Positions 6,928 to 35,061 of a DNA stretch of 64,000 bases are shown piece after piece. The translations under genes and the position numbers were made by a program. Under the pieces are notes generated by a model. It saw only the letters and a program-made list of their open reading frames with translations. It was not told the origin of the DNA and did not search any database. Position 1 is the first letter of the stretch. Every line of letters starts with the position of its first letter. Source of the DNA: an uncultured delta proteobacterium (lineage in GTDB: Bacteria > Desulfobacterota > Syntrophobacteria > Syntrophobacterales > Syntrophobacteraceae); NCBI GenBank assembly GCA_963808625.1, contig CAWEHK010000017.1, forward strand, positions 32,001-96,000, written 5' to 3'.

Positions 6928-8217
6928 ATTGATCGGAACATCTTCCGTCAGATATTCGAGGAACATTGGATCGAGTTCAAAGAGCGCCATCCGCCGTATG
7001 CTGGAGGGTATTACGAAGAGGTGGTGCAAAAGATGTTGGGTTGTGGAAAGGAAGCGGGAGGATACAGCGAATACCTGTGCACCTGTTGCGGGAAGGATAT
7101 GCGGCGGATTGCCTTTACCTGTAAGAGTTGCTTTTGTTTGTCGTGTTGCAAAGGATACACGGATGATTTTGTGGCGCAGGTCAGCCGTGTATTGCAGCCT
7201 GGAGTGAGATACCGTCATATGATCCTGACGGTTCCTGAGCAACAACGGATTATCTTCTATCGAGATCGGCATGAGGGGAAGCTCTTGTCGGCACTGATGC
7301 GTTGTGGGTATGAGTGCCTTGAAGATGTGGTGAGCTGCGCGGTGAGGCAGCAGGTGAAGATTGGAGCGATCGGTGTGGTGCAAACTCATGGTCGGTCTGG
7401 GCACTATAATCCGCATCTTCACATTATCATGAGCAGTGGAGGGGTCAACGAAGAGACGGGTAAGTGGGTGGAGTTGGGGTATTTTCCGTATGAGATCATC
7501 CACAAGAAGTGGCAATATCATCTCTTCAAGATGCTTAAGGAGATGGTTCCAACGACGGAGATGAGGTCCTTGATTGATGCTCTCTGGAAGAAGTACCCGA
7601 GAGGACTTGTTGCCCATGTGACGAAAGGAAAAGTTCCAGAGCAATGCCGAGGCTTGGCCAAATACCTGGCCAAATATGTTGCCTCTCCTCCGATAGCCGT
7701 AAGACGGATCATGGGCTACACCGGTCAGGAAGTGACGTACTGGTACAAGGATCACCAGACAAAGAAAAAAGAAGTGGTCACGGTCAACGTGATGACCTTC
7801 ATTGGACGGATGGTTCAACATATTTTTCCGAAAGGATTTCAGCGGCTCCGCTACTATGGTCTGCAAGCAACGAAGACCTTCAAGAAATGGGTGGAGGTGA
7901 TTAGGGAAGGATTACGTAGGGTAGGGCGAGTTATCAAGGGTACTTATGAGGTGGTTGCATCCAAGAAGTATCGTGAAAGGTTCCAGGAGATGAGCGGTTG
8001 AGATCCGCTGATTTGCAGATTCTGTGGTCGGGAGATGGATCTCTGGAAGATATGGCACCCCAAGTACGGGACGATCTACGATGAGTGGGAAAACCTCAAA
8101 GCGGGCAAATACGAAAGAATCGCTAAGAACAGAGATGGAACTTCAGGATGGGGAGGATATTCCCTTTGGCCCCCCTCCGGAGGAGTACAATTATCGCTGT
8201 TCCCTGTGCGGGTGTGA
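6928..8217 (+). pseudogene. IS91-family (HUH/Y2) transposase with N-terminal zinc-binding domain and an in-frame TGA at 7999-8001
   Basis: CTCCG...FTCKSCFCLSC, YRHMILTVP, QTHGRSGHYNPHLH (HUH), YLAKY, FQRLRYYG; the frame continues past the TGA as DPLICRFCG...WHPKYG; upstream in-frame IDRNIFRQIFEEHW lacks an ATG. Confidence 0.85.
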
Positions 8218-8368
8218 AGTGTGGGTCAACGAGGCGATCATCGATTTCGAGCTTGGCTTTGCCGAGTTTGAGGGAAGAGAAGTAGTTATGCCTGTTATTG
8301 GGTGTCCTGGCTGTAACCGGGAGACTATGCAATACACCGGGATCAAAAGTCCGCCCGAAGGGCGCTAA
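8135..8368 (+). CDS. Small zinc-ribbon protein carried inside the IS
   Basis: CSLC...CPGC pair; overlaps the transposase 3' end and lies inside the right inverted repeat. Confidence 0.5.
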   Translation: MELQDGEDIPFGPPPEEYNYRCSLCGCEVWVNEAIIDFELGFAEFEGREVVMPVIGCPGCNRETMQYTGIKSPPEGR

Positions 8369-8556
8369 GTCCAGGAAAATCTTGCCGGCCCTTCGTCATC
8401 CCAGGAAAGGCGAGGTCCGGAAGATTTTGAAAAGATACCATTTCAGTTTCGCCTGAATGACACCCAAGTGCCTCCACATCAGGGTCAGGGCTTAAGTTAG
8501 CAGCATTAGGTTAAGGCCCACTTCCCTGGCAAAGTCCATGATTTCCTGCCGATCAA

Positions 8557-8748
8557 TCACTTCTTTTTAGTTTCCTTTCCCCAGCCTTCAGACACCCACA
8601 ACCGTCATTTCGTAACTAACCTCGCTGCGGGCAATGCCGGGTTGAGCTTGGTGTTTCCTTTTGTGCGGCGGATCACTTCTGTGATCCGCTTTCGTTCAGT
8701 TTTCCCTGATTCAGAAAGCTGTTGCAAAGTTCTCGCAAAGTGCCCCAT
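8557..8748 (-). pseudogene. AbiEi-family antitoxin relic with a large internal deletion
   Basis: MGHFARTLQQLSESGKTERKRITEVIRRTKG|NTKLNPALPAARLVTK*RLWVSEGW; its stop overlaps the toxin GTG (GTGA). Confidence 0.65.
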
Positions 8749-9254
8749 GTACCAGAATTTGTGAATTGTGCCTCATTAGATATACTTTCTATTGCGCTAA
8801 TTCAACTAATGGGACACCTTCCAGACATTAGGGATGGCGCTTTCGGCTCTTCCTGGGAGTTTTTCTTTTGACAATTTCACTCGAAATCCGCTTTTCACCA
8901 TTTGGTGAAATAGATGAAAATAATGAAATCTTTTTTCGAGATTGTCCTTCTGTTAACGGGCCATTCTGCCCGCGACTTCGAGTTTCGCCGTAAGCGATTT
9001 AGGACAAAAGAGATTGGGGGATAACCGCGGACATTGACGTCCTCAGGTCCCGGAGTGAAGAAGAAATGGCTGATCACATCCCCATAACTTACATCCCGCT
9101 ACCGATGATTCTGAGAACGAAGGGTTGTTGTTGCTTTTTTCACAGCGGCTGAATTTTTATGGTGATCATCTAATTGCATTCGTGTATCAGTAAGAGCTAG
9201 ATGTGAGATGTTTCCCAACACTGTGATAAGATAGTAGAAGCATAGGGGCTGTGT

Positions 9255-9656
9255 ATGATCATCACGCTGGTTCGTAACGATGGTGAACCGACACCGGAAT
9301 ATCCCGGAGAACAAATCTGGAGAGGGGGCTACCAGGGGCCTTCAATAGATGACGCTGATCAACTCCCAGCATCTCTCCTCTCGAATCGGATCTCAGACCT
9401 TCAAGAAAGGATCGAAATCGGCACTTGGTACCCTGTTGAAAGATTCAAGGACCTTTTCAGTGCCTCAAGAAATGATGCAGGAGCTTGGTCTGAAGTGGCC
9501 GTGCCGGTTCTCACCCCGGATGGCAAAAAAGATAATGTATTGATCCAAGTCGAGCTAAACAGTTGCTGTGACATGATGGTGCAAGCTGTTTTCGATCTCA
9601 CTGAACAGTTAGATTTGTGGAGACAAAAGGGGAGTATTTGGATCCGTGTTGAGTGA
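9255..9656 (+). CDS. Hypothetical protein, first gene of the PIN/ATPase operon
   Basis: 133-aa ORF overlapping the next start by 11 nt; no recognisable motif. Confidence 0.55.
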   Translation: MIITLVRNDGEPTPEYPGEQIWRGGYQGPSIDDADQLPASLLSNRISDLQERIEIGTWYPVERFKDLFSASRNDAGAWSEVAVPVLTPDGKKDNVLIQVELNSCCDMMVQAVFDLTEQLDLWRQKGSIWIRVE

Positions 9657-11596
9657 AGCAGAAATAATGGCGATCAAAGAGGCGATCGGTGATGGTACCA
9701 TTCAGCATATGTTGCCCGGTCAGTACTCCATCCGGTACACCGACAACACCCACCTGGAAGATGAAGACTGGACTACGCTCCTGAATGTTGAGATTGAAAA
9801 AAGACCGCCCGCTGAACGGCCACAAGAAAGCATCTCATCTCAATATGACTCTGATTTCAACGAGGCGATGCAGTTTTACGCTATTTCTGACGCTGTTAAC
9901 TCGCAGAATCCCGAACAGGCTAAGGTGCTCCGGGACATCCTCGCTCAGAGTCTTCTGCGTACAGGCATTTTGCGCCCATCGATGGAGCTTGAGGGATTCG
10001 ACGATATCCTTAAACTCGCTCGAACGAGATGCTGTCATCCTGGTACCAGACACCAATGCGCTCTCAACAGGTACTCTCCATTGGCTGCTCCATGCTTTGA
10101 GCGAGACTCAAATCTGGATCTTGCCCGTGGTTGTCTCCCTGACCCAGATTCAGCAACGGGACCAAAAGCTTAAGGGCTTGGTGAGCAAAAAAAAACTAAA
10201 TAATCTCTCGCAAGCCATACGATCAAGAACTCTTATCAATTCCTCTCTGTGTCTTCTGGAGCGTTGCCAGGAACGATATCAGGTGCTCGAAATAGATCCT
10301 CAGCTCTTGCGATACGTTCGGCCTGCCGGAAGAGGAACTGTTGACTCAGACGAGGGGGATGTGCTTGAAGATCGGCTTTTCATTGAAGCTATTCACACTG
10401 TGTTTCGTGCCACTCGAACCAGGGCAGAGAAGCGAGTGGTGACATCCGACGTGTTGCTGACAAGAATTCTTAGAGCCGAAGGCATTCCGACGCTTTTCCT
10501 GCAAACCCCGAGCTTGCCGCATGGTCGCATTCAATGCATTTATTATGAAGCCATTGCACGCAAGTTTCTCGGATCACCCCTGATTCATCTCCTGTGGGAT
10601 CTGGCTCATTGTCTCAGTAGGATCCAACTCTTGGACAGTCAGCAACAAGTTCATGTAGAGCTAGAGGCCTACTGGCCCGGCAAAACGGCGGCGGATTGGA
10701 GCCGTGAGTGCCTCCTGATCCAGACTCCCACGGCACGTCAGGAGCGGCCGCCTGAGATCTCCCCCCCCTCCAGTTCAGGTTTGTTTGGAGGCTTGTTTTC
10801 AGGTGTAACGCTGCCGGAAGCTTCTTTTCTTCAGGTTCTCCGCTTGGGCGGCGCACTCCTTCAAGGGCAGGCGCCCTTGTCCGATCTCATTATGCGAATG
10901 CCCGAGAGCAAAAGACCGAGTGACCAGGTAGCAAAGATGGCCGCCGAGTTTCTCCTCCGCGCAGGGCTTGCTGTCCCAGAAGGTAAACAATTGATCGCTA
11001 CAAAGGCATTGGAATCTTTAGACGAAGCACTGGAGCGAGGTGACTTAGATAAAGCCAGCGCCCAACTTCAAAGTTTTGGGCCGTATCGTGCAATTCTGGA
11101 AGCACTGAGGGCGAATTCCAAACTGGATTCCGATGCCGTGGGTAATGTATTAGCCAGGGAAATTGGAAAGGAACCTTCTAAGGACTCGCGTAAGAGATTC
11201 ACACAAGTTCCTATCTACCTGGGGCAGGCCTGGACACACGAATCAATGTTGTGTGATGGAACGGCAAGACCGAATGATGAAACCATCATGGACTGTTTCA
11301 GAAGGGCCTTTGATGAAAAAGCTCGAGATGGTTTATGCGCGATTACGGAGTTGCTGTTTGAATTGCGTAGATTGTTATGTATCAGCCCATGGTTTGCCTT
11401 TCAACAGCTTGCTCGTATAGTTGAAGCCAACCAGCTTGCCGAGTATTCTTTTCAGCCATCAGCAGGAAAGCCAGTAGTATCACGCTGCGAAGTAGTCAAA
11501 GGTAGACTTGTCGACCTTCAAACACTTCTAATTCCCATGGATCGTATTGAGGTCAATGGGCGTCCCGTATTCACCGTAGGCCAGAGGTCGTCATGA
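9646..11596 (+). CDS. PIN-domain protein with a long helical C-terminal region; probable frameshift near 10020
   Basis: PIN motifs ILVPDTNAL, EDRLFIE, VVTSDVLL; ORF 9646 (..DILKLAR) appears to join ORF 9785 at ERDAVILVPDTN. Confidence 0.7.
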
Positions 11597-12831
11597 CTAT
11601 GAAACTGAGTGAGCAGTTGCGTCTCAAAATAGAGTCTCCAGCTCTGGAGCAGGACCGGTTCTTTGATCGGTATGGGCTTCTCAGAAATCCTTTCCCCCCC
11701 AGTAGGACGATTATTCCTGAGATTCTATATGATCAAGAAACAGCCTATGAGCGCTTTGTGACTCTCGTCAGCGGATTTCTCAGAGACACACCGGAGCGCC
11801 GGTCGATGGGGATATTAGGTGGGACTGGCGGAGGGAAAACCCACTTTCTTCGGCACTGCCGATGGCAATTGGAAGAGTTTTGCCGGGAAAGCGATTACCG
11901 GTTTGTGTTGGTGGAATTCGCAGCGGGTGCGGGAAAGGTTCAGGATATAGTTCGCGAAGCATTCAGAGGGGCGGATACAATATGCAATGATCATTGTGGG
12001 GCTGACTTCATAACATCTCTTTTGGCAGAATTGCAGAAGAGGGACGACAGCGAGGAGATCCTCAAATCAATTCAACATGACGAGCTCCATTCGGCATTAT
12101 CTAGACTGCTGAAGGTTTCTCGCTCAGGCTACCGACCGTCGAACACACGTGGGCAATATGGCTTTGAGACATTGCGTGAGCTATTTCGCAGATGGTTGCA
12201 TGGAGGCACGCTCAGCCAGACAGAACGAAAGCACCTAGGAGTGTTTTTAAGGATTGGCACTGCTTCAGTGGCTTCCAGGGTTTTGCGTGAAACATTCACT
12301 GTGGCCAGATATTTGAAAATCATTCATGGCATGTTACTTTGCCTCGACGAGATCGAAACTCTTTTCACAGGACTTCGTCCGGCTCAATATCAGGCCTTTC
12401 TCCAAGACCTTAGATATCTGTATGATGAAGCGGTGAAAGATACTTCCGGTTACTCCCTGCTTGTGTTGTCGGCCTCGACGAATACGGGTGCCAATACACT
12501 TTTGAATATCAACTATCCCGTATATCAGAGACTGGGTTTTGAGCAGCCGGCGCGAGTCACTCTCGTTCCCATCGACGGTCAGTTGGATGCAAGAAATTTT
12601 GCCAATGTTTATATCGAACATGGGCATGAAGAATGGAGCCGGAGAACGAACGCCGAACCGTGTTCCGACCCTAAGACCATTCTCACTGACCAGGATATCA
12701 GGGAGGTTTACGATTCTGTTCTCAAATCGACCGATCCTGATCTGCGAAAAGTCGGACAAGTGAATCAGGCGCCTCTGTTGGATGCACTTTTCCATAAAGT
12801 CGAGGGGAAAAGGCTCCTGAACAAACAGTAG
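11593..12831 (+). CDS. P-loop ATPase, BrxD/DUF2791-like
   Basis: GLLRNPF N-terminus, Walker A GGTGGGKT, distant Walker B LLCLDEIETL preceded by RRWLHG..LSQTERKHLGV; ATGA overlap with the PIN gene. Confidence 0.8.
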   Translation: MTMKLSEQLRLKIESPALEQDRFFDRYGLLRNPFPPSRTIIPEILYDQETAYERFVTLVSGFLRDTPERRSMGILGGTGGGKTHFLRHCRWQLEEFCRESDYRFVLVEFAAGAGKVQDIVREAFRGADTICNDHCGADFITSLLAELQKRDDSEEILKSIQHDELHSALSRLLKVSRSGYRPSNTRGQYGFETLRELFRRWLHGGTLSQTERKHLGVFLRIGTASVASRVLRETFTVARYLKIIHGMLLCLDEIETLFTGLRPAQYQAFLQDLRYLYDEAVKDTSGYSLLVLSASTNTGANTLLNINYPVYQRLGFEQPARVTLVPIDGQLDARNFANVYIEHGHEEWSRRTNAEPCSDPKTILTDQDIREVYDSVLKSTDPDLRKVGQVNQAPLLDALFHKVEGKRLLNKQ

Positions 12832-14210: not shown

Positions 14211-16907
14211 TCACCTTATCATGTTGGTAAAACCCCCCATAAGTTCTTCAACAAGCCGAGCAATTTCGTCCCTCTGCCTTGCCCCAAAGCCCTCTGTGAC
14301 TGGAATGATTGTTTCATCCAGCAGCGCTCGCACAGGAATCATGTAACCCGACATGAGTTTTACCTCTTCTAGTTTTCCGTGGAGACGGACGGTCAACACC
14401 TTCTCTTTTTCCATAGAGCGACTACATTTTTGGGTGGCAACGCAGAATCCACCTAATCCCTGCCACAACAACTCACCTTTTTCGACTTCGTCCTGAGCTA
14501 ATCCCTCCCGCAATTGAGCTGGGGTAAGGCCGACCAATGCTTGTTCAAGTGTACGGAGCGCTTGACCCCTTCGCGTCAGCTGCTGCCATGAACTCTGGAG
14601 ATGATCCAAAGAGGATGAATCCTGAACGTCTGTGGTTGGATGTCGAAGAAGCTTGGAAAGCTGTTCGGCTATTTCGGTCTTGTCACCGCCATGCCAGAGC
14701 CAGGGCAATCGTGCCACGGACAGAATACTGGCAAACCTGAAACGCGCGTTATCAATGTATTGTTGAATCGAACCGTCAGGAAGTGCCAGAGCCCACATGA
14801 CCAGTGTCGCCGAGAGTTCGCTCGAAATCATGCTTGCGGCAAAATTGACGGGAGACTCACTTGAACGATAGCGATGTTCAAGCCAGCCAATGTGCCTATC
14901 AGCCTCTGAAGTAATAAACAAAGGTGACCATATCCGCTGTGTGCATTCTACGAATTCATTTTGGCTGAGCCATCCCTCACGAAGCCCCGTGCGCAAAAGG
15001 ATCGCACTAAGTTTGATATCATCAGCCAAATGCTCCGGGGGACGTCGCTCAAGATAGTCTCAACCAGCCATCACTTGAATGACCTGTTCTATTATCTGTC
15101 TGGCTTTTTTGCGTTCTTTTTCGGTTTCGCTCTTGGGAGGGTGAGGTTTCTGTTTCGGAGTTTTCGCTCCGGGAAGGATCTTTATTTTGGTATCAACGGT
15201 TTCACCATCTGTCTCGTTCCCGTCATCGTCCGTTATTGTGTCAGGTAAATCGAATTCCTTTTCACCTCCTTCATATCCAGGCGCCCCAAACCATTGAAGA
15301 AACATTTGTCTCAGACTTCCCAAGCGATCTTCTCCGGACCCGAAAGTCTTTACGCTTCTGATAACAGGGAAGCTATAAGAGTCAGCAAATACATCCTCTT
15401 CGGTAAATTCTAAGACGTTTACGGCTTGGTTTCCTACACCGCCACTCGAAAAAGCAGGAGCGCGGGAAGGTATGTACCGAAGATGTCTGCAGAAAACTTC
15501 GATTACTTCAGTCCACGCTCCCAGGTTCCATACACCGGGCCTCACGTTCCTATGTATTGATTCTGATACTGCTCGCCCCCATGAAGTAGAACGGAGCTCC
15601 TTTTCGATATCTATCCACATGAGAATGGAACGTATTGGGAGGCCCTTACTCGATCCTTCGAAAAAGACAGTACGCGGCGGGTTGCGTGGAGTCTTGACTG
15701 TTGCGATGCGATCGCTAATCAATTGAAATTCGGTTGGGCTTTCATCCACTTGACAGCCTGTCAACTGCGCGTTGTGGGCACATTTAAAAGCCACTCGGAG
15801 TTCTTGGCCTTCCAAGCGGGCTCCCAGAATCTGGATTCCGGCTTGCTCGCTGGGAGTCTCATCTTGCTCCAACAAATCATCGGGTAATTGAATAGGTTCA
15901 TCGAGTATTTCAAAATGATTTAGATATTGATCCTTAAAATCTGAACGATTGAATCGCTGGATAGCCAGAAGTTCAGCATTCCCGGAATTCCCTGGAATGG
16001 TTAGGGCTGCCCGTGAGCAATTGGCGCTCCCGGCAAACACGGTGACTTCATCCCCTCGCTGGAAAGCATAGAACTTTGCATGCAGAAAAGGCTGGCGATC
16101 TGTATTTGTCTCGGAGGAACGGGTAAAGTCTATCGGAACTACTCTTGTGAGTGGTAACTTTGATGCGATATTCTTGGTAAAACCCGATCCTCCCTTTTGA
16201 ACCAGCACTTCAGATTCACCAGGTTGCACTCGATTTATGAATTCCTGTAACGCGGCACCCTCTGTATCAAAGTACGGAGAACAGCAAATGAATCTCTCTA
16301 TAGGCCCTGAGCCCTGAAATCGTAGCATTTGGCCCAAGAGGGCTTCACCTTCGGTTATTCTACCAATTAACATCCCAGGCTCTTCGAGCCTTGTAGCCCA
16401 ACTGCGGGTATTGCCGTCAAAAGCCTCCTCTATTTCAGCTTTAACGGAGTTATTCAAGGGGACTCTCTCCAGGATTTTCCGGAGGTAATCATTAAAAGCT
16501 GCAAATGCTGCCGTACCATCCGTTCCTGAATCAAATCGAATCCAGACTTCAACATTTTCACGCCATCCACCAAACGTAAGATTGCCACTACCAATAAAAA
16601 GTGTCGCTTTGTTGGAAGCGGACAGGAGGACAGCTTTAGGGTGGAAGCAAAAACCCGACTCCAAAAGGATAGGTACGACCCGGAATCGGATTCCGAGACC
16701 GCTAAGCACCTTGGATTGATATGCAAATGTCTCGGCAGCGCAATGAGCATCTGCAAAAATCGTTATGGCGGGTTGGCCGCAGCGTTTAAGCGCAGGGAGA
16801 ACGACGAGTTGAAAAAAAACAAAATCAATATTGTGGGTAAGGATAATCACATTGGTGACATCCTTCTCCTTCTCTATGAGGCTGATAAGATCTGAAATCA
16901 TGGACAC
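14211..16907 (-). CDS. Large phospholipase-D-superfamily (double HxK) putative nuclease with an in-frame TGA at 15062-15060
   Basis: FHPKAVLL...FIGSGNLT and FLHAKFYAF...AGSANCS; ORFs 15060-16907 and 14211-15029 share a frame, separated only by one TGA. Confidence 0.75.
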
Positions 16908-16915
16908 CGCTCCAT

Positions 16916-18454
16916 CTATCCGACGAACGCTCTCCCTTCATCGTTCAGTGCAAATTTGCCGCCTTCTTCCCGATCACACAGACCCAGATCTGCCAGCATT
17001 CCAAGCACATTGGTTAGTCGGTCTCCACTAAAACCGGCAGCCACAGTCTTGCCGGTGGGCCTAAGTAAATCCCCTTCCGGATAGAATCGGAGAGAGCACT
17101 TTTGTCCTTGTCCCATTTTTCGAAGAGTTGTGGTCAGATGAGGTTCAATCGCAGTTTCTATTAGAGCAGAAGACAGGATCTCACCAACGGTCTTTTGCGC
17201 ACCGTTCTGCAGAAGGGTAAAGATCCGTTCCATGTAGTGGTCGCGTTTAGGAATCTTTCCCGCTCCCCTGAGCTGTTCAGTCAGCCGCTGGCAATTCAGG
17301 AGCATTGCCAGCGCATATAAGGCTTGGGGGAATGGCGTCAGCGTGCGGCCAGTTTTTCGATCCAAGGGGCCGTTCAAGAATGCACCAACAGGCAAACGGT
17401 CATTGATCTCGCCAAGCTTTGTCTCCAGGGGGACAGAATCAAATTGCAGGATTTCCGTTAACAGAGAAGGGAGTCTTTCAGAACTTGGCCAGGCATCCAG
17501 TATTTGCTGAACGGTTGCCTCGGTCAAATCCATCAGGGTGTCTGTGAGCGCACAGAGGAGAAGCTCTAAAGAAGAATGAACCCTTCTTCGAAGTTCGTAT
17601 TCCGCCCATGCTAATTGCGTATCTGAAAGGTTGGCCTGATTCCCGACTACAGCATCCCGAAAATTCTCGAAAATCAAGTCGTTCGAGGATTTGCCCGTGC
17701 TGCTAATCCCCGCCAGAGCCCAGCGCACCGTTGCATTGAAGCATCGGTAGGACTCAAGAACGGTATTATCCTTCAGGTAAGGAGTGAAAAACGACGCTCG
17801 CAGAAGCTCGAGTTCTCTGCTGTTATGACCAAGCCCATTTAACGAGAAGTGATGTCCTTCTCGTTTTATGGCCTCAAGGTTCAACAGACCCCCATCCAGG
17901 ATGAGCTTTGTCAACTCGCTTTGCCCAAGAGTCTCGCGCCGAGCCTTGTGTATGTCCTCTCCTCTGGGCACAATTTCAACGGGCACATCTGTGTCGCCTG
18001 CTGGTGCTGCCAAAATCCCGAAAGAACGGCATGGCATTATGTACGTCCCATAAGATGCCCCGTGATGGTCGGAGGATATCTCAACGCGGTGGTTGCTGAG
18101 TAACTCAGCCAGCTCACCCGCATAGAGATCTGAACCAAGAACACCGTATGTAATCCCTGACTCACCCCATTCTGTGCCGATTTTCGAGGCTGCGAGAACG
18201 ACGAATTCCATTCGGCTGAGCACCTTTGAATAGCGTGCTGCATCGAAATGTCCTTTCCCTCCGCCTTCATTGATCTCCTTTCGGAAGAATTCCGCTGTGA
18301 TCCAGGGGAGCAGCGAAAGATACCTCGCCCGGTATGAAATAGTCGTAATGCCCGCGACCCATTTGCGTTCGATATTTTGATCCAGTTGTCGCAGCCCCAG
18401 GATGTCTAAGCCTTGGATTTTTTCTCTTTCACCAGAATTCCAAAAGCATTGCAT
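16916..18454 (-). CDS. Uncharacterised partner of the PLD protein (DUF6361-like N-terminus)
   Basis: GLDILGLR...[32 protein letters not shown]-terminal wHTH-like LGMLADLGL...ALNDEGR; 8 nt upstream of the PLD gene. Confidence 0.65.
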
Positions 18455-18742
18455 ACCGAGTCCAGTCTCAATGAGGCGAAATAGGTTGTTTCCATGTCGG
18501 AGCTCAAACTCGAAAACAGTTTTAAGTGTTCACCGAAATGGGGATTTTCTTGGAACCTGTCCGATGAAGAGCAAACCTTATGCCAGCGCAATCAGTGGTA
18601 ATGAGCGCTTCGTGCCCATGAGTTGAAAGGCAGAGTAACTTCACAATGGATACGGAAAAAGGAACGGGTAAAGAATATTATGCTATCGGAAAGAATTTCA
18701 TGAATTGGCAATCATTGCCTGTGAGATAGGCTTGAGATCCTT

Positions 18743-20856
18743 CTATCCTGGATTGCCCTTAAAAATGTCCACGATCGTTTCAAGCAGGGCCGCATCTCAA
18801 GGTCGTTGGCGCCGATGCTGAACCAGCTGTCCGGTTTCTGGTAGATGTCGAAGCCGCGGCCGACCTTGATTTTCCAGCCATTGTCCAGGCGGATTTCCCG
18901 GTCGTGCTGGTGTTGGTTGTAGGTGACATTCAGCTTGATGCCGTGATCGATCAGGCTTGATGCCAGCGCCTGGAACTTTTCGTCCGCTTCCTTCCGCTGG
19001 GACTCGTCATCAAATCCGGTGGTGAGATTGATCGTATGCGCCGATCCGATCTTTACCACCAGCTCGCAAAACCGCACGAAATTGGCTAATCTGATGTTGA
19101 GAACGGATGTACGGGTCTTCAATGTCGATGACTTTTGCTCCCCGCAGATAGTCGCCGAAAAGAGCCTCATACGTAAGCCGGTATCACCATAAAAGATCTT
19201 GGAGTGTTTCTCCTTCAGTTCTTCTCAGGAGGGGGTAGAGGCTCCGGCTCCGGTTGGATCACTTCCGTGGTCACCACCGCGGGCTCCGGCTTGACCTGCA
19301 TCTCCTCATCAGGCCTCTTTCCTGCGCTCCTTCTCCCGCGGCCGGGTTTTCTCCTGCATCAGCCCCGGCAGCACCCGCCTCTTGGGTTCTGCGTCGCTCC
19401 TGCGTCTTTGGATTCCGGGCACCAGACGATGACTTCCTCACCCGGATCTTGATATACGAAAGATTGATGCTGGCGAACTCGTCGTCGGCTTTGCGCTTGT
19501 TCATCTGTTCCTTGACCCGCCGCCGGCCCTCAAGCGCGTAGTCCAAATATTGCGTCAACTCCTCCCGGGTCGGCTTCTCCGTCGGGATGCAGCAGCTTCA
19601 AAAAGGCCGCAACGGTCTTCTTGATCGCCACTTCGTCCCGACCCTCGAGCGCCTGCCCAAGCCGGCAATGTCGGTTCACGTATTCATAGCGGTTCATCTG
19701 CTGGCTCAAGTGGTGGAAGACTTCCGCCAAATAATCGGTGATGAAGCCGTAATTGGTGGTCAAATACTCACTGCTGTTCTTGGGCATTTCCCAGCCGGGC
19801 AGATAGGTGTGGAAGCGATCCATCACCGCCAGGTCGAAAGACATCCGGGAGCGGAATGAACAGGTCGAACTGCGTGGAATTGACCAATTGATCGATGGAA
19901 TGGTCGATGTTCCCGATAAAGCCAAGGCTGGCGTTGGCAATCACCTCGACGCCCCGCGAGAACCGCCCGTTGGCCATGTAATCTTTCAGAATGTCGATGG
20001 TGCTCTGAGTCCTTGATCTTGACGCCGCCGACTTCATCGAAGGCCATCATGTCCCAGAAGCCAACCAGGCCGACCTGCCTCTTGGCGTTGTTGTAAAGCA
20101 GGACGGACGTGCTCGCCTGCCCGCCGCTGACGAGCGTCGAGTAGGGGGAAAATTCACTGAACACGTAGGATTTGCCCGTGCCCCGTGGCCCCAGTTCAAT
20201 GAAGTTGTAGTTGGCCTCCACAAAACCAAAGAGCCGCGCCAGGAAATGGAATTTTACCCGCAGGGTGAGCTTTGACGGCTCCAGCCCGATGGAGCGGATC
20301 AACACGTCCATCCATTCATCCCGGGTGAATTTGTCGCGCTCCGCGAGGAATCATCGGAATTGAAGCGTGACAGCTGGATGGGCCGAAGATCCTCGATGTA
20401 AAAGGCGTAATCATCGTCATCCACGTCGTTGTGGGCCACGCGTTACCTCCGCCCAGATGCCGCCCTCCAGCAGCCGCTCGTTGTTCCGGTAGAATTTGTC
20501 GTGGATGGCGATCCGCCGGGAATTGAAATTCTCCATCTCCGCCCAGTGCCGCTTTTCGCTCTCCACATATTTGACGTGGATTTTGTCGATGAACTTGTGC
20601 TTGCCCTTTCTGTTGCACCAGGGATTGGGCCCTGTTGGCTTCGTCCGGGCGCACGTAGTTCTTCTGAATCGTCTCGATCACCGCGCGATGCCGGCATGGA
20701 TTTCATCCGGGTCATCGGTGGCGCAGAACTTGGCCAGCAGGAACTCCAGCACAAAAGACGGCACGTTCGTTCCCTTCTTGATCTGATGCAGCAGGTCTTT
20801 GCGGACCACGCGGCCCGGGTAGGCTTCATTCAGTTTGATTGATCAAGAGCATCCAT
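18743..20856 (-). CDS. brxL: BREX BrxL AAA+ protein with MIT_C (PLD-like) tail; multiple frameshifts
   Basis: GRVVRKDL..NVPSFVLEFLL, NYNFIELGPRGTGKSY, LVGFWD..AFDEV, LKDYMANGRFSRG, DRFHTYLPGWEMPK, GRDEVAIKKTV; tail HDREIRLDNGWKIKVGRGFDIYQKP. Confidence 0.85.
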
Positions 20857-20863
20857 GAGCTTA

Positions 20864-23387
20864 TCACTCCATGTAGTTGGTCTTGAGTTTCAAGGTTGCG
20901 TAAGTTTGCCTGAGTCTTGGGATCGATGGCCCGAACCTCAAATGACCCTTCAAAATCGTCATCCATTCTGAGCGGCACCTTGATGGCCTGACCCAGCTGG
21001 ATTTTGATGAAATTCGTTGAGGGGTCGAGGTAATGGCACGAAGCCGCTTCGCCGACCACTTTCCCTTTGGCATAGGCCTCCAGCTGGAACTCGAGTTCGT
21101 TGGCTCCAAATCCCTCGATTTGTTCCCGGAATAGGACGATCTCCACCATCGGCCTGCGCGTCGTGACGCTGTCGGTCGCCCCGCCCTTGTAACTGATCCT
21201 GAGATTGCCGGGCCGCCCCTCCTTTTGCACCTTCTTTTTTGCGGTTACACAGAGCACGGGAAGGACGCATTCCTGGAGCGACAGCCCCCCATGAAAATAC
21301 GGGCTGGACCTTCCAAAGGTCCCGAAACTTCTCGGGACCACAAGGGTATCCACTTCTCCCTTGATGCCCACCTGCTCGGCTTCAAAAGCAACCGTGCCCG
21401 GGCCTCCGGAGCCGCTGCCCAGAAGGTAACGGTCCTTTGCCTGCAACCAGTCGCCCGCAGGCTTTGGTACCGACGTCCCCGGCTTCCTGCTCCTCCAGCA
21501 GGATGAAGCCGTGATCGGTTGCCAGCACCACATGACCAAAGCCCAGTTCCCTCAATTTGCTGATGGCTGCCGGGAGCTTCTTCAGAACCGCCGGGATAAA
21601 CCGGGCCGTGTCCTGCGCCAGGTGCGTCCCCAAGTCATCGACGTCCTTGGTTTTCAGCATGACCAGCTGGACGGTCTCGGGAAACTGCAATTTCTTTTGC
21701 TTGAGGAACTTATCGAGATCCATCATCGCACAGCGGTCGCCATAAAGCGCCTGGACGGCCTTGAGCCGGTCTGACGGGTCTTTGATTTCGCGCTCGCTGA
21801 TCATGGGAATCAGGTCTCTCATCCTTGCGAATCAGGCGGAGATTGCCTTCCGCTTCGGGCATCAGCGCCGCCATCCCTACTTTGGTGACCGTCGGGAGCT
21901 GTGCTGCAACCGCATGGAGCTCTACAGTGTAGTCTTCGAGAAGACGTGGCTGGAGTTCAGCGGCCAATTCAAAGCGAAGGGCGTCAATGAGAAGCAGAGC
22001 GATGTTTTCGCGTTCTTCCAGTTTGGGCGCCAGAAACTTCTCAAAAACCTGAGTCTGTCTCAGATATCCGGACGGGGGCCACCCCTCTTTTTCCACCAGA
22101 GCAACAAACCCATCCTGCACTTCTTCCGCGAATTTCAAATAGCGCTGCCGAGCCTTCTCCACAAACTCTGCGACCGCAGCCCAATTCGCCATAAGCATCG
22201 TTCACCGCCTGCTCAAAAACCCGGTGCAGGGTATCAAGCTGTCGCAGCCTTTCCGTGTAATAGGAAATCAGCGCCGTTAGGTCGCCGGCCTGCTTTTTCC
22301 ACTCAGGCTTGCTCTCGTCGACTTTTGAAATGAGCTCCAGTCCTCGTTCGGCAATTGTCCAGAGAAGCATTCGTTCGGCCTCGCGCGCCCAGACGGAATT
22401 CAGCCGGAAAGCGGCAATCTCCCGCGCCCGCTCGATCTCTCCTGCTTCCGCGGCAGCAAGGAACTGGAGCAGGAAACTCTCCTCTTCAAACGAGAAGGTA
22501 TCGCGCTTGCCAAAATCCTTGAGGTGTTTGAGTCGCTCCTCGAGGTTCAGTTCGACAGCCGCTTTGTTGGCCATTTCGAGGTAGGCATTTTGATGCTTTG
22601 ACGCCGTGCGCAAGGTGTCACAGACGTTGAAGATCAGGGCACCATGAGATGCCTTCACCCTTGGGCACGTCCTTCAGGTCTTCAGGGATTTCACCGGGAA
22701 GGTCCAGGACCAATTCAGTGAAGAGCACATACCTGGCCAGCTCTTCCTGGATCGGCCGCCATTTCAGGCTTTTGGTTTTGAGCTTGAGTCCCAGCGTCAC
22801 CCTGGCAAAATGTTTGAACTCCGCAGGCCAGGCATCATCTTCTTCCAGGGCCTTCCGTTGTGTTTCCGTGGGTGAGAGCAGGGCAACGAGAATCTCCGCT
22901 GCCGATTCGGTCTTGAGAAGGCTCCTCAACTTGGGCCAGTTCGGTCCGCTGTCGATGGCATCCACCGTGTCGAAATCGGGGATGCCGGCCTCGAACAGTT
23001 GATCCACTTGCTGCTGAAAATCGGGTTTCGCCTTGCGACAGAGCGCCTGATACGCGTCCCCGTCGTCATAGGGGAACTCGCTGCCGCCAATGGCAAAGGC
23101 CTGATAGGGGTTTCGCTGTCGTTCCACTTCCGTTTTGGGCTTTGGGATCGGGAGATAGATTACCAGGGACTGGAGCTCGTCCGCAGATTCCGCCAGCCGG
23201 CGCCAGGCCTCCATGGCTTCTTCTCTGGCCAGGATGGTGGACTGGCTGCCGTCGATCACGCGGCATTCGGGTTCCTCCAGATCTCCACGATTTCCCGGTA
23301 TCGCTCTTCGGGATCGTAAAGCACCAGGCATGCGGACTGCTCCAGCCGCTTTTGAAAGTGGTCTTTCAAGAACTCACGGATTTTCAT
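20864..23387 (-). CDS. pglZ: BREX PglZ alkaline-phosphatase-like protein; multiple frameshifts
   Basis: LVLYDPE N-terminus, LLIDALRFELA, AQLPTVTKVGMAALMP, VLATDHGF, YFHGGLSLQECVLP. Confidence 0.9.
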
Positions 23388-23644
23388 TCTACTTCATCAC
23401 TGTCTGGCCGAGTGAAAGTCACCTCGTGGCGATTTGCAGACCAGCGCTCCTTCACGAAAGGCTCTTCGATGACCTCTCCCTTGCCCCTCATACGTTTGTG
23501 GGCGTTGATGATCTCGTCATCGATAAGCGCCATCTCCAAGGCTCTGTTAACTGCTTCGGTGTCCCTTCTCACGCCGAAAATGCGGCGCAACCGATCGATG
23601 TAGTCCTGGTTCATCTTCATGGTTTTTTTGACGAGTCTTGACAC
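23384..23644 (-). CDS. VapB-like antitoxin (orphan), translationally coupled to pglZ
   Basis: KKTMKMNQDYIDRLRRIFGVRRDTEAVNRALE pattern; ATGA overlap with the pglZ start. Confidence 0.6.
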   Translation of the reverse strand: MSRLVKKTMKMNQDYIDRLRRIFGVRRDTEAVNRALEMALIDDEIINAHKRMRGKGEVIEEPFVKERWSANRHEVTFTRPDSDEVE

Positions 23645-23701
23645 AGTTCTCCCTGCTCAGTACACCTCTGCACAAAAAAGTGTCCGAAAATTTGTAGCCT
23701 C

Positions 23702-23867
23702 GTAGGTTGGGTTTCGTTCCTCACCATGATTGCGGTCCACAATGCCGTGATTGATCGAGGAACGAAACCCAACATTTCGCTTCAGTTGGTCGGCTTTTGT
23801 TGGGTTTCGTTCCTGGGATATTCCACAATTTCATGCGTATTTCGTAACGGAACGAAACCCAACCTAC
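23702..23867. repeat. GTAG-type REP cluster (two nested inverted pairs)
   Basis: gtaggttgggtttcgttcc...ggaacgaaacccaac...gttgggtttcgttcc...ggaacgaaacccaacctac. Confidence 0.8.
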
Positions 23868-23920
23868 AAGACTGTCTGGCCAATCACAGAAATCCTCAAA
23901 AGAGACCGTCTCCCGCCATC

Positions 23921-24484
23921 CTACGTCGGTAGCGCGAACAGCTCTCGTGCCACGAGCTCCAGTCCGATTGCCTCGATCCGGAAAGTCTCATCTTCCTGGT
24001 ATAGTTCAGGCTTCTTATAGATCCCGGCCTCGAGAGTGTATTTCTCAACGTATTCCCGGTCCGGGTGAACTATGAAATACTCTTTGACACCGAAACGTTC
24101 GAACTGGTTCCGCTTCTGCTTGCGATCTTTGGTCTCCGTGCTGGGGGAGATCACTTCAAAGACCACATCCGGCGCCCCAAAAATGCCTGCCTCTTTGATT
24201 CTGGATCGCTCACAGACAATGAGGACGTCCGGTTGTACAACGTCCTTATCAGAGAGGATTACATCTATCGGCGCCATGAAAACCCGGCAAGGGTAACCTT
24301 TGCTTTCCATGTCCCTTTCCAGGACATAAGCTATCCTTAAGGTAACCGCCTGATGGACCGTAGTGGGAGCCGGGGTCATGTCGTAGATTTCCCCATCCAA
24401 GATCTCGCAGCGTAGGTCATCAGGAAACCCCCTGTAGTCCTCGTAAGTGTATGAAGTCTTTTCTTCTGCCAGGTTTGTTGCCAT
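23921..24484 (-). CDS. Uma2-family endonuclease
   Basis: YTYEDY, EILDGEI, PAP...HQ, VVQPDV, GAPDVVFEVISPST...D...K...GVKEYFIV. Confidence 0.9.
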   Translation of the reverse strand: MATNLAEEKTSYTYEDYRGFPDDLRCEILDGEIYDMTPAPTTVHQAVTLRIAYVLERDMESKGYPCRVFMAPIDVILSDKDVVQPDVLIVCERSRIKEAGIFGAPDVVFEVISPSTETKDRKQKRNQFERFGVKEYFIVHPDREYVEKYTLEAGIYKKPELYQEDETFRIEAIGLELVARELFALPT

Positions 24485-24576
24485 CCCTCGTTTCCTCATG
24501 TGTATGGTTTCCTGCGCTTATCGCCGGACCCCTTTAAAAATGGTCTTTCAAGAAGTTGCGAATCTTCATTAGGCAA

Positions 24577-24810
24577 TCAGCTCTGGCGTTTGCTCGCGTG
24601 AAGGATGGTCAAGCCAACCACCTCATCTTCCTCGTACCGAATGATGACGTCATCATCGGTCAATTCGCTGTCGGTGGCGGTGCTCGGCTTCTTGAAGTTG
24701 ATGTAGAGTACATCTGCCTCAGCATCGTAGGAAGACCAGAGATATCGTTGTGGGGCTTGCCTGACCGCTGCGATCAGGGGCAAATAGTCTCTTACTGTAA
24801 CGGTGGCCAT
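24577..24810 (-). CDS. DUF2283 family protein
   Basis: YDAEADVLYINF...VVGLTILHASKR. Confidence 0.85.
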   Translation of the reverse strand: MATVTVRDYLPLIAAVRQAPQRYLWSSYDAEADVLYINFKKPSTATDSELTDDDVIIRYEEDEVVGLTILHASKRQS

Positions 24811-24833
24811 GTCACTCTAACGGCCCAATCTGC

Positions 24834-25055
24834 TCAGGCTGCATACCGGATCACTTCGATCTCTGCGGCAACGTCCACTCTGTCGAGCATCTCTTCCACA
24901 CGGCTCATTACGGCATCCTCCAGCAAGTATTCGCTGCAGTTGTCACACTGGAGCACCGGCAGATCCTTAAAGATGACGATGGTTTTATCGCGCACCTTGA
25001 AAGGGAGATCCGTGGCCGACAACCTCATCATGGACCCGCATACGTGGCATTTCAT
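24834..25055 (-). CDS. YgiT/MqsA-type zinc-finger protein
   Basis: MKCHVCG...KDLPVLQCDNCSEYLL. Confidence 0.85.
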   Translation of the reverse strand: MKCHVCGSMMRLSATDLPFKVRDKTIVIFKDLPVLQCDNCSEYLLEDAVMSRVEEMLDRVDVAAEIEVIRYAA

Positions 25056-25057
25056 GA

Positions 25058-25396
25058 CTACCGCCTCCTCGTTTTCAGGTCCGCCTCCCACTCCTCGGGG
25101 TTTGGACGATAAACGGTGATAATTCTCATATTATCTCCTTCCACGTCGGTCGCGCACAGTACATGGAAGATTTCGCCTCGATACACTGAATACAAAAGAT
25201 AGCTTGGGAAGTATCTGTCCTCCGGATATTTTTCAATCATTTCAAAGCTGTTCCGTGAAGAGATGATCGCTTTCCGAGAGATGGACCTGCCCTTCAGACG
25301 CATATTAACATGGTAGGTCCAGAAGATCTTTCCTTGCTCCATGCAGCGACGGATAAATGTCAAAGGATCATCTGGAAACCTTCGCTCATCGTTCAT
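25058..25396 (-). CDS. DUF4258 family protein (putative toxin of a TA-like pair)
   Basis: WTYHVNMRL..RSIS, IEKYPED, FHVL, IITVYRPNPEEWEADLKTRR. Confidence 0.85.
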   Translation of the reverse strand: MNDERRFPDDPLTFIRRCMEQGKIFWTYHVNMRLKGRSISRKAIISSRNSFEMIEKYPEDRYFPSYLLYSVYRGEIFHVLCATDVEGDNMRIITVYRPNPEEWEADLKTRRR

Positions 25397-25443
25397 TCAT
25401 GCTATCCTGTGTTACTTCGGCAATCCAGCTCGGAACTTCAAAA

Positions 25444-28400
25444 TTACCGCTTGGCTCTTGCTCTTTTCGGTTTGTCCGTTTTCGGCTCTTCATAAAGCTC
25501 TTCCAGGTCGTGGGCGATGGCGATGGAGCGATCGGTCTTGCACTTCTCGCGAACCCGGTCCGGCCAGATGCTGTAGGCCAGGTGCGCCCAGTCGTATTCG
25601 CCGGCTTCGAGCTTCTCCCAGCACGCCTTCAAATCCTTCTGCCACTTGGGCAGGCGGAACAGTTTCCAGAGCGGGCTGGCGGTGATCAGCACGCCGTCGT
25701 TCAGGTTCGGCCGGTAGGGAAGTTGGGCGACCCGCAAGAGCTCGTCACGGAATTCCTTGAGTTCCTGCTGCAGCTTCTGGTGCCTTTCAAGCTGGTCCCG
25801 CTGTTTGGCGGTTCCGCCTTGAAGCACTTCTCCTCGCAGGCGCTCGATGTCCTGGTTCACTTCTCAAGCTTGGGCTTCACGAAGTCGTTCACGCACTGGA
25901 ACAGCGTCTGGTCGGTCAGGCGGTGGTAGTAGATCCAGAGCGTATAGATCCGGAGCGGTGGAGAGCGGCCAGTAGATGGGCGCTTTCCGCCGGCTCTTGG
26001 AGTAGCGCTTCAGGTGGTCGGCGAAAGAAGCCGGCGGGCTTGCGGAAATAGTCGCGCAGGCTACACCCCGAGGATTTCGCAGGCTTCCTGCTCGATGGCC
26101 TGGGCCCGTTCACCCCAGAGAAGTTCGAGCACTTCGCGCACTCGGCGGACGATGTCCTCAGGGTGCGTCTGCGTTGCGTCGCCGTCCGAGTCATCGAGCA
26201 AGATGCCGCTCCAGGTGATCCGCAGCGGGTATTCTTCATCGGGAATGGTTGGTCTTGAGACCGACCTTCCGGGGGCAGGGTAATTGCGTTTGGCCGCGCC
26301 CGGAGCCATTCTTCGCTGACGATCCGGCCGGGTTTGGCTGGAAGGCCGTCGGGGGCCGCGAGCATACCTGGGGGCAAACGGGAAGTGCATGGGAGAAGGA
26401 TCTGACAATTTGGGTGCGAGTAATGGATCTATAGCGATGCGGGCGTCCCCAACACCCGAAGACGATGCCTACTATTGTTGATATTTCGCTGTGTGCTGCA
26501 AACCACTTACATCCGAAGCCAAATCAACGTCACATACAGGGGATTCGACCTTAGGCTGTCTTATCCGAAAAGAATCAATCTCTGCTCGCTTTGGCTGGAA
26601 AACTTTGTATGTACAGATTGATTCCTCATGACAACACATCTCTGCTTCAAGGCATACTTCGCGTGATGAATCAACTAGACGATTGATGAATGATGCATTA
26701 TCCAAAATTCCAATTCCTGATCGAATAATTGAAAACAGCGATTGAGTCTCATCAAGACGCTGAGCATCTCGAAGCGTATCTATTGCCGACTCAACCAGTG
26801 CTCTACATTTCTCCATATTTGACAATGGATGGTATGGTAAGAGGTTGACGTAGCCAGAATACTTATGTTGTCCAGAATATATTTATTGAGGGAGAATCTG
26901 ACCAAAGGTGTATTGAGAAGGGCAAGTGCATCCAATGCTCTATTTTTTTCTCTAATCGGAATTGATTGGCCTTCGACTTGGTGAAAATATGATTGCGTGG
27001 TAGGACATGAGTCAAAAACTCACCTCTCTTCCCCAAAGCAAATACCCGGCAGCAACTATACCCGATTCGGATTACAGTGGCGCTGTCTTTCGGAAGAGAT
27101 TCAGGAGGGACATCAGCAAGGACGCAATCATGAAGTGTTGTGCAGTATGGTGCAAATCCCGACCCATTAAACATTCTCGCCACAAATCCCATAGACGTTG
27201 GGCTCGAAATTTCCCACCACAGGCGGAAGTGCTTATCGGCTTTCAGCGCATGGCCTTGGTTTGCTTTCAGTCCAGAACGTTCCAGGGACGGACATTCCAT
27301 AAAAGCAACTATCAAAAATTCGGGAAAGTCATATCCGACGACAGCGTTTGGAAGATGTTGAAAGGATGAACCTTTTTCACAGAAAGTTCTGTCTTTTTCC
27401 AGTCCACTGCAAAAAGCACAAATTGAATCCAGAATGTAGAGAACCTTGCTGTCAGCATCGACTTCCCTGGAATCGATAAAAACCCCTCTATTTGAAGGAG
27501 GTTGATGATTCAAAATGGAAGTTGTGACTTCGACATTAGCATCGAGCACTCCCCATCCAAGGTCTGCCATTGCGCTGAGGCGATTATCTAAATAATGCGG
27601 TCCTGCGAAAATCCTCATATGTGCTCTTAACGATTGCCGTTCTGTCGTAAATAGCACCAACCGCTCCCTTGGGGTGAGACATTTGGTAACCTATTTCAAG
27701 GAAGGAACAGAGTATATTTTTGTTCCATGTCGGATAGGTGCGGGCGAAATAATCTGATAAGTGAGAAGATACTTCACCAAACGGCGGATTCATCAGCACC
27801 ACATCGTACTTCTTCCGACAGAGATCGATGAACGCAAATCCCTGCGCTGCATCTTCCGCAAAGAGCTTGCGTTGGTAGCCTTTGCCGTTAGCTAGCCTTT
27901 TCGGCAAAATGCTTCAATGCTTCCAGCACCCAGCCTTCTAGCTTGATCCCAGAATTCTTCCTTTTTGATTTCCTGCAGGGCCATGCGGAGTTCGAGCTGC
28001 CTCGGCGGTTGTCGGTCAGGCCACATGTGCAGCTGACCGACGGTTGTCCGCGCCGGACATCTTCCCATTCCTTCCTAACTCTCTCGATGGCACTCGCGAA
28101 GCTCTTCCTCGATCTTAAGGAGTGATCCCGCTTCGCCGGCAAGCTGCATTTTGTCCCAGACTTCCCGGACCAATTCGCCCACAATCCGCTGCTCGCCCCG
28201 GAAGGAGCCGATGAATTCCTCCAGGAGGTCCTTCTCTCCCGGCATGGGTTCGGCGCAAACGACATTGGCCCGGGTGATGCGTGGGCGCTCCGCAGGTTTC
28301 AGTCCCAGCTTCTGGTAGGAGTCGCTGCACTCTCAGCCAAAGCGAGAGGCCGGCAATCTGGCAGGCGCGCGGGTCGATATCGATGCCGTGGATGTTGTGG

Positions 28401-29530: not shown

Positions 29531-29602
29531 ATGGGATCTTCTCCGTTCTCTCTTGGATTCCTGATCATTGGACTCGCGCGAGTCATGGTCTGAGTGTCTC
29601 TT

Positions 29603-29685
29603 ACCGCAGAGATCAGCAGATTGGACGCCTGATGATAAATCCCATATACATACATTCTCTGCGCATCTCAGCGTTCTCTGGCGGT
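29603..29685. repeat. Degenerate inverted GCAGAG-repeat pair between brxC and pglX
   Basis: accgcagagatcagcaga ... ctctgcgcatctcagcgttctctggcggt; same family as 33415-33694 and 48111-48180. Confidence 0.6.
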
Positions 29686-29760
29686 GAGTTCATGTCTTTC
29701 CACTTCCTGCTGGTCGGTCTCGCGCGTAAACTCAATTACTCTTCTTACGGTATGGCCCGT

Positions 29761-33390: not shown

Positions 33391-33414
33391 GGTGAGTTTC
33401 CTCTCCTCTTTTTT

Positions 33415-33694
33415 ACCGCAGAGAGCGCAGAGAACGCAGAGTTTAGTCTTCTTTCAGATTGTTCACCAATCGCCGTAGTCCAGCCGAATGCTGTACGCCA
33501 GTGACTTTATTCAAGTAGAGCTTTCTGTCCTCTCCACTTTGCCCTCTGCTCAACTCATAGCAAGACTGCCTCATAGGTCGACTCAAGCAAACCTGGACCG
33601 AGCTCCCGATGAACGGCTATAGCCGCCCCAATGATGGACTCAGTACTTTATTCAAGTCTCCTGTCATCTCTGCGTCCTCTGCGAGCTCTGCGGT
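33415..33694 (-). pseudogene. GxxExxY-family relic bracketed by inverted 9-nt-periodic GCAGAG repeats
   Basis: [25 protein letters not shown] on the minus strand; flanks accgcagagagcgcagagaacgcagag and ctctgcgtcctctgcgagctctgcggt. Confidence 0.8.
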
Positions 33695-35060: not shown

Positions 35061-35061
35061 G

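Follow-up and report, generated by a model that had tools for sequence, protein, structure and literature searches.

What do three overlapping genes, here called A, B and C, do at positions 9255-12831 of a 64,000-nucleotide stretch from an uncultured delta proteobacterium (assembly GCA_963808625.1, contig CAWEHK010000017.1, positions 32,001 to 96,000, forward strand; hereafter the window)? An earlier note, made from the sequence alone, had read them as a candidate defence system made of a small open reading frame (ORF), a PIN nuclease and an ATPase. We found that the trio is apparently an unnamed conserved module, a variant of designs that couple an ATPase to a nuclease or an ORC-type ATPase to a protein with several winged helix-turn-helix (wHTH) units. 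Judged by its sequences, it probably serves defence of some kind. The three genes and the domains of protein B lie as follows.

9255-9656, + strand: gene A, a 133-residue ORF for an acidic protein
9646-11596, + strand: gene B, start codon GTG at 9646, with one single-base frameshift at about 10022-10025
11593-12831, + strand: gene C, a 412-residue ORF for an AAA+ ATPase
9646-10023, + strand: N-terminal beta-rich domain of B with a conserved Y-x-D-x-T-H, residues 1 to about 126 (from tblastn, alignment A1 and the model of homolog P0001)
10025-10810, + strand: PIN nuclease module of B (D136 at 10049, Q168 at 10145, E242 at 10367, D243 at 10370, D269 at 10448)
10811-11596, + strand: tandem winged-helix region of B (three units by the secondary structure of the model)

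The ORF coordinates agree with the co-oriented arrangement described earlier, with an overlap of 11 nucleotides between A and B and an ATGA overlap between B and C. The DNA is also AT-richer, as had been noticed by eye: the G+C content is 49.9% in the trio and 48.7% in the stretch from 6.5 to 19 kb, compared with 55.7% in the genome.

The trio is conserved and matches no named system in the libraries searched

We found no match in PADLOC-DB 2.0.0 for A, B or C (E<=0.1) or for 25 relatives of B (E<=0.01), no family at cut-off for the three proteins in NCBIfam 20.0 or Pfam, and none that fits in PHROGs. The trio had not been recognised as a named system before, and PADLOC-DB 2.0.0, NCBIfam 20.0 and PHROGs bear this out. 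A literature search found no description of it; the supplements of PMC10853773 and PMC12839542 may list such loci.

Searches with the C-part of B gave 63 homologs and searches with C gave 113; with 45 B homologs combined into a profile, 318 representatives out of 1.84 billion were matched at E<=0.001. The B profile also served to retrieve 41 loci, in which gene order was read. A C homolog directly follows B in 34 of them, and the other seven end no more than 104 nucleotides past the last B-type ORF; a small ORF of 114-135 residues precedes B in 35, and the six without it begin inside B or within about 210 nucleotides of it. Some loci are near-duplicates (L034/L035, L038/L039, L007/L046 and L031/L035); hence, the number of independent loci is below 41. 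The order A-B-C thus recurs in homologous loci from several phyla more than chance would allow, as expected of the conserved trio that had been proposed.

The module was found in Alphaproteobacteria, in one Chloroflexi metagenome-assembled genome (MAG) and in one Obscuribacteraceae MAG. No further copy occurred in 60 relatives of the window's genome, in 400 other genomes of its phylum or in 400 genomes of the phylum to which the genome of locus L001 belongs. One of 72,556 plasmid records carries the trio, and among viral contigs profile A1 found one locus while profiles A6 and P0274 found none. Hence, the module is rare and mobile, as its absence from the genome samples and its single plasmid record indicate. 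Intact copies exist in cultured rhizobia, such as Ensifer canadensis T173 (plasmid genes WP_203529906-8), Sinorhizobium terangae and Neorhizobium huautlense; hence, the trio is easy to test.

Two further observations concern the spread of the family. The P0260, P0253, P0285 and P0252 groups form deep clades of fused PIN-wHTH proteins of about 620-730 residues, and the Atlas holds archaeal split PIN and wHTH clusters, together with an Alba-PIN cluster, of similar predicted fold.

Protein C is predicted to be an Orc1/Cdc6-clade ATPase

By its structure model (mean predicted local distance difference test, pLDDT, 95), C is an AAA+ ATPase of the Orc1/Cdc6 clade with intact motifs. The Walker A motif GGTGGGKT (residues 76-83) and the Walker B pair D252-E253, 170 residues later, were found where the earlier note had seen them, and the W-L-x-G...LGV segment before Walker B reads RRWLHGG...LGV. 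K82, D252, E253 and T296 are present in 98 of 98 C homologs and R313 in 97; by position, T296 is presumably sensor 1 and R313 the arginine finger. The top fold match is ORC2 of A. pernix (residues 7-279 of 390; Z 17.8, root-mean-square deviation (rmsd) 3.5, 267 aligned residues). The seven best fold matches are all Orc/Cdc6 proteins (Z 14.2-17.8), followed by TnsC (Z 13-14) and BrxC (Z 13.1), and the top Foldseek match is RdrA (E 2e-5). C has no winged helix of its own, its chain ending at the AAA+ lid. We therefore rejected C as an Orc1/Cdc6 replication initiator, for which a C-terminal winged-helix domain in the same chain would be expected.

The proposed likeness to BrxD and DUF2791 ATPases held, with the Orc1/Cdc6 fold match at Z 17.8 and PF10923 (DUF2791) just under its cut-off (E 9e-5, 22.0 bits against 22.2). 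The BrxD model NF033438 scores 12.2 bits against a cut-off of 350. Hence, C is BrxD-like and is not BrxD. The hhalign comparison of C with the window's own BrxC was not significant.

Protein B joins a putative PIN nuclease to winged helices

Residues of B are numbered after P0001, which is 82% identical to the C-part of the window's protein; the model of P0001 (mean pLDDT 86.6, predicted template modelling score 0.58) comprises two halves. All the motifs reported for the middle protein, VPDTN, EDR, TSD and VVVSLTQIQ, are present in the 9785 frame. The PIN fold assigned to it is supported by matches of the P0001 model to PIN structures and by PIN_4 matches in relatives, which were obtained for 15 of 40 divergent family members (best E 8.9e-9). 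The strongest structural match links residues 1-365 of B with SiRe_0806, a CRISPR-associated PIN nuclease crystallised with cyclic tetra-adenylate (cA4; PDB 9jxx, Z 13.1, rmsd 3.9, 242 aligned residues, 14% identity), and the alignment with residues 150-401 of SiRe_0806 reaches beyond the PIN core alone. Further PIN matches were 3i8o (Z 9.5) and 5f4h (Z 8.4), and a sequence search of the PDB with profile A3 gave nothing below E 0.08. The fold of residues 1-365 is thus like that of SiRe_0806 (PDB 9jxw/9jxx), but B lacks its cA4-binding N-terminal part, which we take to be a CARF domain, and has winged helices instead.

Catalytic residues were counted in 123 of 191 profile matches, those that cover the domain, with partial rows dropped. 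D136, D243 and D269 are kept in all 123. The glutamine seen earlier at the canonical second acidic position of PIN proteins is indeed there in the window, as Q168. We found that 45 rows have glutamate at 168 only, 77 at 242 only, one at both and none at neither, and Glu242 directly precedes the second conserved aspartate, D243. In a tree of 72 rows, which retained 18 of the 69 rows from the close clade and left out both glutamate columns and their flanks, the state at 168 changes four times. Glu242 is present wherever Glu168 is lost; hence, the exchange is probably a compensatory move of a carboxylate, and B is probably active. On sequence grounds, the repeated swap may indicate how a PIN active site can be rebuilt.

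The tail of B had been described as helical, about 350 residues long and possibly winged-helix. Its winged-helix nature was supported, but it is shorter, at about 260 residues (about 390-650). In the P0001 model this part is separated from the PIN core by an alpha/beta subdomain and a disordered linker, residues 390-650 form three helix-helix-helix-hairpin units, and residues 390-454 match wHTH domains at Z 7-9. B did not match the window's own BrxA significantly by hhalign. A complex prediction of B (residues 1-365 of P0001) with C and A gave no verdict because its control scored too close, and it is not used as evidence.

Protein A is a small acidic partner

W58, W129 and R131 of protein A are invariant in 23 aligned homologs, and in each of the 25 close-clade loci with the gene the protein ends in W-x-R-x-E or a closely similar motif. 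The window's protein has 22 Asp or Glu and 12 Lys or Arg, and an acidic excess was found in all 30 A proteins counted. No family reached cut-off in PADLOC, Pfam, NCBIfam or PHROGs. In an Atlas look-up, the best score of 0.88 and the 0.86 for a DNA-mimic cluster both fell below the reliability bar; a word-based profile search gave six matches only, and hhalign found no significant relation of A to B. At a guess, A could be an antitoxin, a chaperone or an adaptor.

A distant clade carries the module in a TGT operon

In one clade (L028 and L030-L041, with L029 a fragment), B is split into a PIN gene of about 385 residues and a separate winged-helix gene of about 290. We refer to it as the distant or split clade, and to the window's own relatives as the close clade. 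The A proteins of both are alike in position, size and acidity. A TGT-family gene directly follows the ATPase gene in nine split-type loci (about six distinct); in seven, A is preceded by a DUF6884 gene that matches YaaA/PF03883 weakly, and in six a VUT transporter gene lies before DUF6884. An intact NurA gene comes after TGT in L041, and remnants of one do so in five other loci; L028, although split-type, has no TGT. Together, the genes form an operon VUT-DUF6884-small gene-PIN-wHTH-ATPase-TGT-NurA (L041:2732-6163, L031 and L033-L039). An incomplete ORF after NurA in L041, without a family match, is presumably the start of HerA. Across loci TGT is about 60-88% identical, while NurA is cut short in five.

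The general TGT model is the only one for which the split-clade TGT passes the cut-off; the protein matches archaeal tRNA TgtA at E 2e-24 and DpdA at E 1e-4. According to excerpts of PMC12839542, PF03883 is the DpdC family. The operon is a possible undescribed system of 7-deazaguanine modification. No homologs of the split-clade TGT, DUF6884 or NurA turned up in the close-clade loci or in the window's genome, which is 84.6% complete; a VUT gene elsewhere in that genome is the sole gene of the distant-clade TGT set present. In L037, PAPS-reductase and HNH genes (7251-8976) lie directly upstream of the DUF6884-trio-TGT operon, which hints at a phosphorothioate-related neighbour.

Close-clade loci often adjoin defence genes or mobile elements

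The neighbourhoods of 18 close-clade loci were compared with PADLOC using 90 neighbour ORFs; a list of 160 candidates was the starting point, from which distant-clade loci and ORFs of doubtful status were removed and to which nine more were added. A match at E<=1e-5 within about 10 kb was found in 10 of the 18 loci. Seven of these hold recognisable defence systems, and the other three have generic matches (methyltransferase, HNH, kinase). The systems include type I restriction-modification (RM) in L004, type IIG RM with TIR and helicases in L013, DruE-like and SNF2 helicases in L003, RosmerTA in L014, and AbiE with a DUF499/DUF1156/SNF2 cluster in L044. L019 and L022 hold Lamassu-like ABC ATPase genes with a KAP NTPase and a type II methyltransferase, and this cluster recurs beside the trio (L019:13824-20236, L022:21-6016).

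Integrase, transposase, relaxase or prophage genes are neighbours in 11 of the 18 loci: integrases flank L002, L004, L005, L006, L014, L015 and L016, relaxase-type or insertion-sequence genes flank L019, L024 and L044, and in L046 the trio lies in a prophage, with the head genes on one side and the tape-measure gene on the other. This prophage (L046:790-17937, also in L007 and L009) holds the trio intact in a typical slot for accessory genes. Defence or mobile-element neighbours thus occur in 16 of the 18, with neither in L001 (3.4 kb) and L010. Helicase genes lie near the trio in three (L003, L013 and L044), in no constant arrangement. Set against the objections that the earlier note had raised to its own proposal, we found no match to a named system, homologs that co-occur outside housekeeping contexts, and a predicted PIN fold.

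The trio resembles several known designs in part

BrxD of BREX type 2/6 and SngB of Shango share with C a stand-alone Orc/Cdc6-type ATPase of about 410 residues, but C has no conserved BrxHI or SngC helicase, PglZ or TerB partner. Membership in BREX type 2/6 or Shango was rejected, since the conserved partners of C are A and B, with helicases near the trio in only three of 18 close-clade loci. RADAR, whose effector is a deaminase, shares the logic of an ATPase with an effector, as do Menshen, Septu and PARIS, and the trio has no PADLOC match to any of these. Menshen likewise has three genes and a PIN-like domain, but in the parts of PMC12065111 that describe it its own PIN is inactive and its sensor is of the ParB/DUF262 kind; Menshen, Septu and PARIS use ABC ATPases, whereas C is AAA+. 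Menshen was rejected as an assignment, as the trio has no DUF262 gene and no Nsn match and C is AAA+.

The nearest described design, as far as excerpts of PMC10853773 go, is a set of mobile operons predicted in silico that combine Orc/Cdc6, triple-wHTH and restriction endonuclease (REase) genes. These and the HerA/FtsK capture systems of the same paper share with the trio an ORC ATPase, a multi-wHTH protein (possibly DndG/SspB/FokI-like), a nuclease effector and mobile DNA. The trio differs from the operons so described in having a PIN effector fused to the wHTH part and an extra small gene, and its close clade has no REase, ASCH or HerA. The DNA-scanning pairs SspB-SspC and BrxA-BrxC, as outlined in excerpts of PMC10853773 and PMC12839542, likewise pair a multi-wHTH protein with an ORC-type ATPase, but the trio has no phosphorothioate or methyltransferase core. 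A CRISPR-associated PIN nuclease is driven to oligomerise by cA4, according to an excerpt of 10.64898/2025.12.27.695470; we infer that it is the protein of PDB 9jxx.

The distant clade shares TGT, a YaaA/DpdC-like gene, VUT, an ORC-type ATPase, wHTH and sometimes NurA with Dpd and BREX-Related Capture (BRC), but no DpdB, PglZ, DUF6079 or GNAT was seen in its loci, and BRC as described in excerpts of PMC12839542 has no PIN. Membership of the window's trio in Dpd or BRC was rejected because no homolog of the TGT arm was found in its genome (84.6% complete) or in the close-clade loci. What is new here, to the extent that sequences can tell, is the apparent tie of the distant clade to TGT/7-deazaguanine genes and the glutamate swap in the PIN site.

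The trio may be an ATPase-gated RNase

We see an even chance that an ATPase/winged-helix sensor gates a PIN ribonuclease (RNase) against invading DNA. From its fold and motifs, C would oligomerise with ATP, as its family does. Orc1/Cdc6 proteins bind DNA through their winged helix; the tandem winged helices of B could replace the one that C is missing, much as SspB may do for SspC and BrxA for BrxC. The B-C assembly would engage invading or abnormal DNA, and this engagement might cluster the PIN modules of B into an active state, comparable to the cA4-driven oligomerisation of the CRISPR-associated PIN nuclease. The PIN module would then cut RNA, and the infected cell would halt. In the weakest step, A might keep B inactive, or aid its assembly, until the trigger arrives.

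Several observations weigh against this mechanism. The window's gene B is frameshifted and its repair is unconfirmed by reads. The close clade has no canonical helix-2 glutamate (glutamine in 40 of 45, threonine in five), and the glutamate swap, with only two independent pairs on branches of good support, cannot reach significance. The matches of the B tail to the FokI recognition domain (Z 7.5) and to SspB (Z 6.0) are below the tool's level for a common arrangement. Homology between the A proteins of the two clades was undetected (hhalign probability 0.2%). Eight of the 18 close-clade loci have no PADLOC match, and the figures for defence neighbours are raw counts without a background rate.

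The trio could instead be a three-part toxin-antitoxin unit that stabilises mobile elements, with B as a PIN toxin whose winged helices serve its autoregulation, A as antitoxin, C as remodeller of the complex and any anti-phage effect incidental. The PIN domain is the classic fold of VapC toxins, A is small, acidic and directly upstream of B, and the loci are often associated with integrases, relaxases, plasmids or prophages. We nevertheless consider addiction unlikely: an Orc1/Cdc6-type ATPase that is obligate and has kept its motifs would not be needed for it, plasmids hardly ever carry the module, and the distant clade has it within a TGT operon. That operon, with TGT after the ATPase and DUF6884 before A, speaks for another reading, restriction of DNA: C would load B onto DNA for the PIN fold to nick or cut, the TGT and DpdC-like proteins of the distant clade would mark self with 7-deazaguanine, and the close clade, having lost the mark, would recognise, for example, modified or replicating phage DNA. 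The tandem winged helices resemble the recognition modules of FokI and SspB, and the operons predicted in PMC10853773, in the portion describing them, join Orc/Cdc6 and triple wHTH to a REase. However, the catalytic core is structurally closest to PIN_4-type domains, most of which are RNases, no homolog of that TGT was found in the close-clade loci examined or the window's genome, and the TGT is nearer to archaeal tRNA TgtA than to DpdA, which makes cleavage of DNA a rather improbable function.

We regard it as very improbable that the close-clade PIN is dead and only binds its substrate, like the inactive PIN of Menshen, and that the module is an ATP-driven DNA clamp, for example blocking the replication of invaders or steering integration as TnsC does. 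Such a clamp would account for the absence of the usual second acidic residue from all 45 close homologs, for TnsC among the fold matches of C and for the frequent integrases, but the three aspartates are kept throughout, Glu242 is fixed in 77 of 77 rows lacking Glu168, and the integrases vary in orientation, distance and type between loci. A broader scheme, about which we are doubtful, would unite both clades: the winged-helix/ORC-ATPase pair might be a DNA-scanning engine that in the distant clade delivers the TGT, which would write a 7-deazaguanine self mark without DpdB while unmarked DNA triggers the PIN RNase; the window's clade would have dropped the writer and become a mark-free sensor that activates the PIN RNase by oligomerisation, in place of the cA4 signal.

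If the scheme of one engine with two jobs were true, the family would be a new restriction-modification-like one with a stand-alone abortive offshoot. Should the trio protect against phage, it would be an unnamed system whose RNase is controlled by an ATPase akin to replication initiators, and what BrxD/ORC-type ATPases and the winged-helix proteins beside them do in BREX, Ssp and Dnd-related immunity could be tested on it directly. A new system of DNA base modification is a further possibility, suggested by the TGT-linked clade.

The frameshift in gene B is most likely an assembly error

Whatever the mechanism, the window's copy could be a pseudogene in a decaying island while the family is functional elsewhere. 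By tblastn, intact homologs follow the frame of the GTG at 9646 as far as about 10023 and continue in the 9785 frame at 10025, and the adjoining pglX, pglZ and brxL are likewise in pieces. However, genes A and C are intact, and housekeeping genes of the same window (36049-40443, + strand) are equally split, carA over two frames and carB over three, which points to an indel-prone assembly. P0008, which is 99% identical and comes from a separate 7,347-bp contig, is open across about 10023; its own break is near 10760, at a poly-C run that the window has intact. Public reads (two runs, 6% of words) gave four 151-nucleotide contigs, all on gene C, leaving the frameshift site uncovered. Hence, with carA and carB split and P0008 open at this site and broken at another, the frameshift is most likely an assembly error, and decay of this copy is an unlikely explanation. 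Other apparent pseudogenes in so indel-rich an assembly also need caution.

Surroundings of the trio in the window

The DUF4238 and BREX neighbours reported earlier were both confirmed in library scans. The supposed AbiE and integrase relics were not: neither gave a match in Pfam (E<=0.001) or PADLOC (E<=0.1). Downstream of the trio the island continues with DUF4238, then ZacA/ZacB-like genes, then BREX; the ZacA/ZacB-like genes and an IS91 transposase are neighbours that the earlier note had missed. Promoter and terminator scans stayed at chance level. The remaining features are these.

7021-8001, + strand: IS91-family transposase (NF033538, 200 bits), directly upstream of the island
7021-8368, + strand: the span of this transposase and the small Cys-rich ORF after it
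14211-18454, - strand: a ZacA-like gene of 512 residues (PADLOC E 0.03) and a ZacB-like double-PLD gene of 615 residues (E 1e-19), perhaps extended by a 272-residue ORF
18712-35553, - strand: BREX locus with brxE-like, brxA, brxB, brxC, pglX, pglZ and brxL genes

The ZacA/ZacB-like pair has no adjoining ZacC helicase gene and is an Azaca-like remnant or variant. In the BREX locus, pglX, pglZ and brxL are each spread over several frames, brxL carries an MIT_C/PLD tail, and a Uma2 endonuclease gene lies inside the locus.

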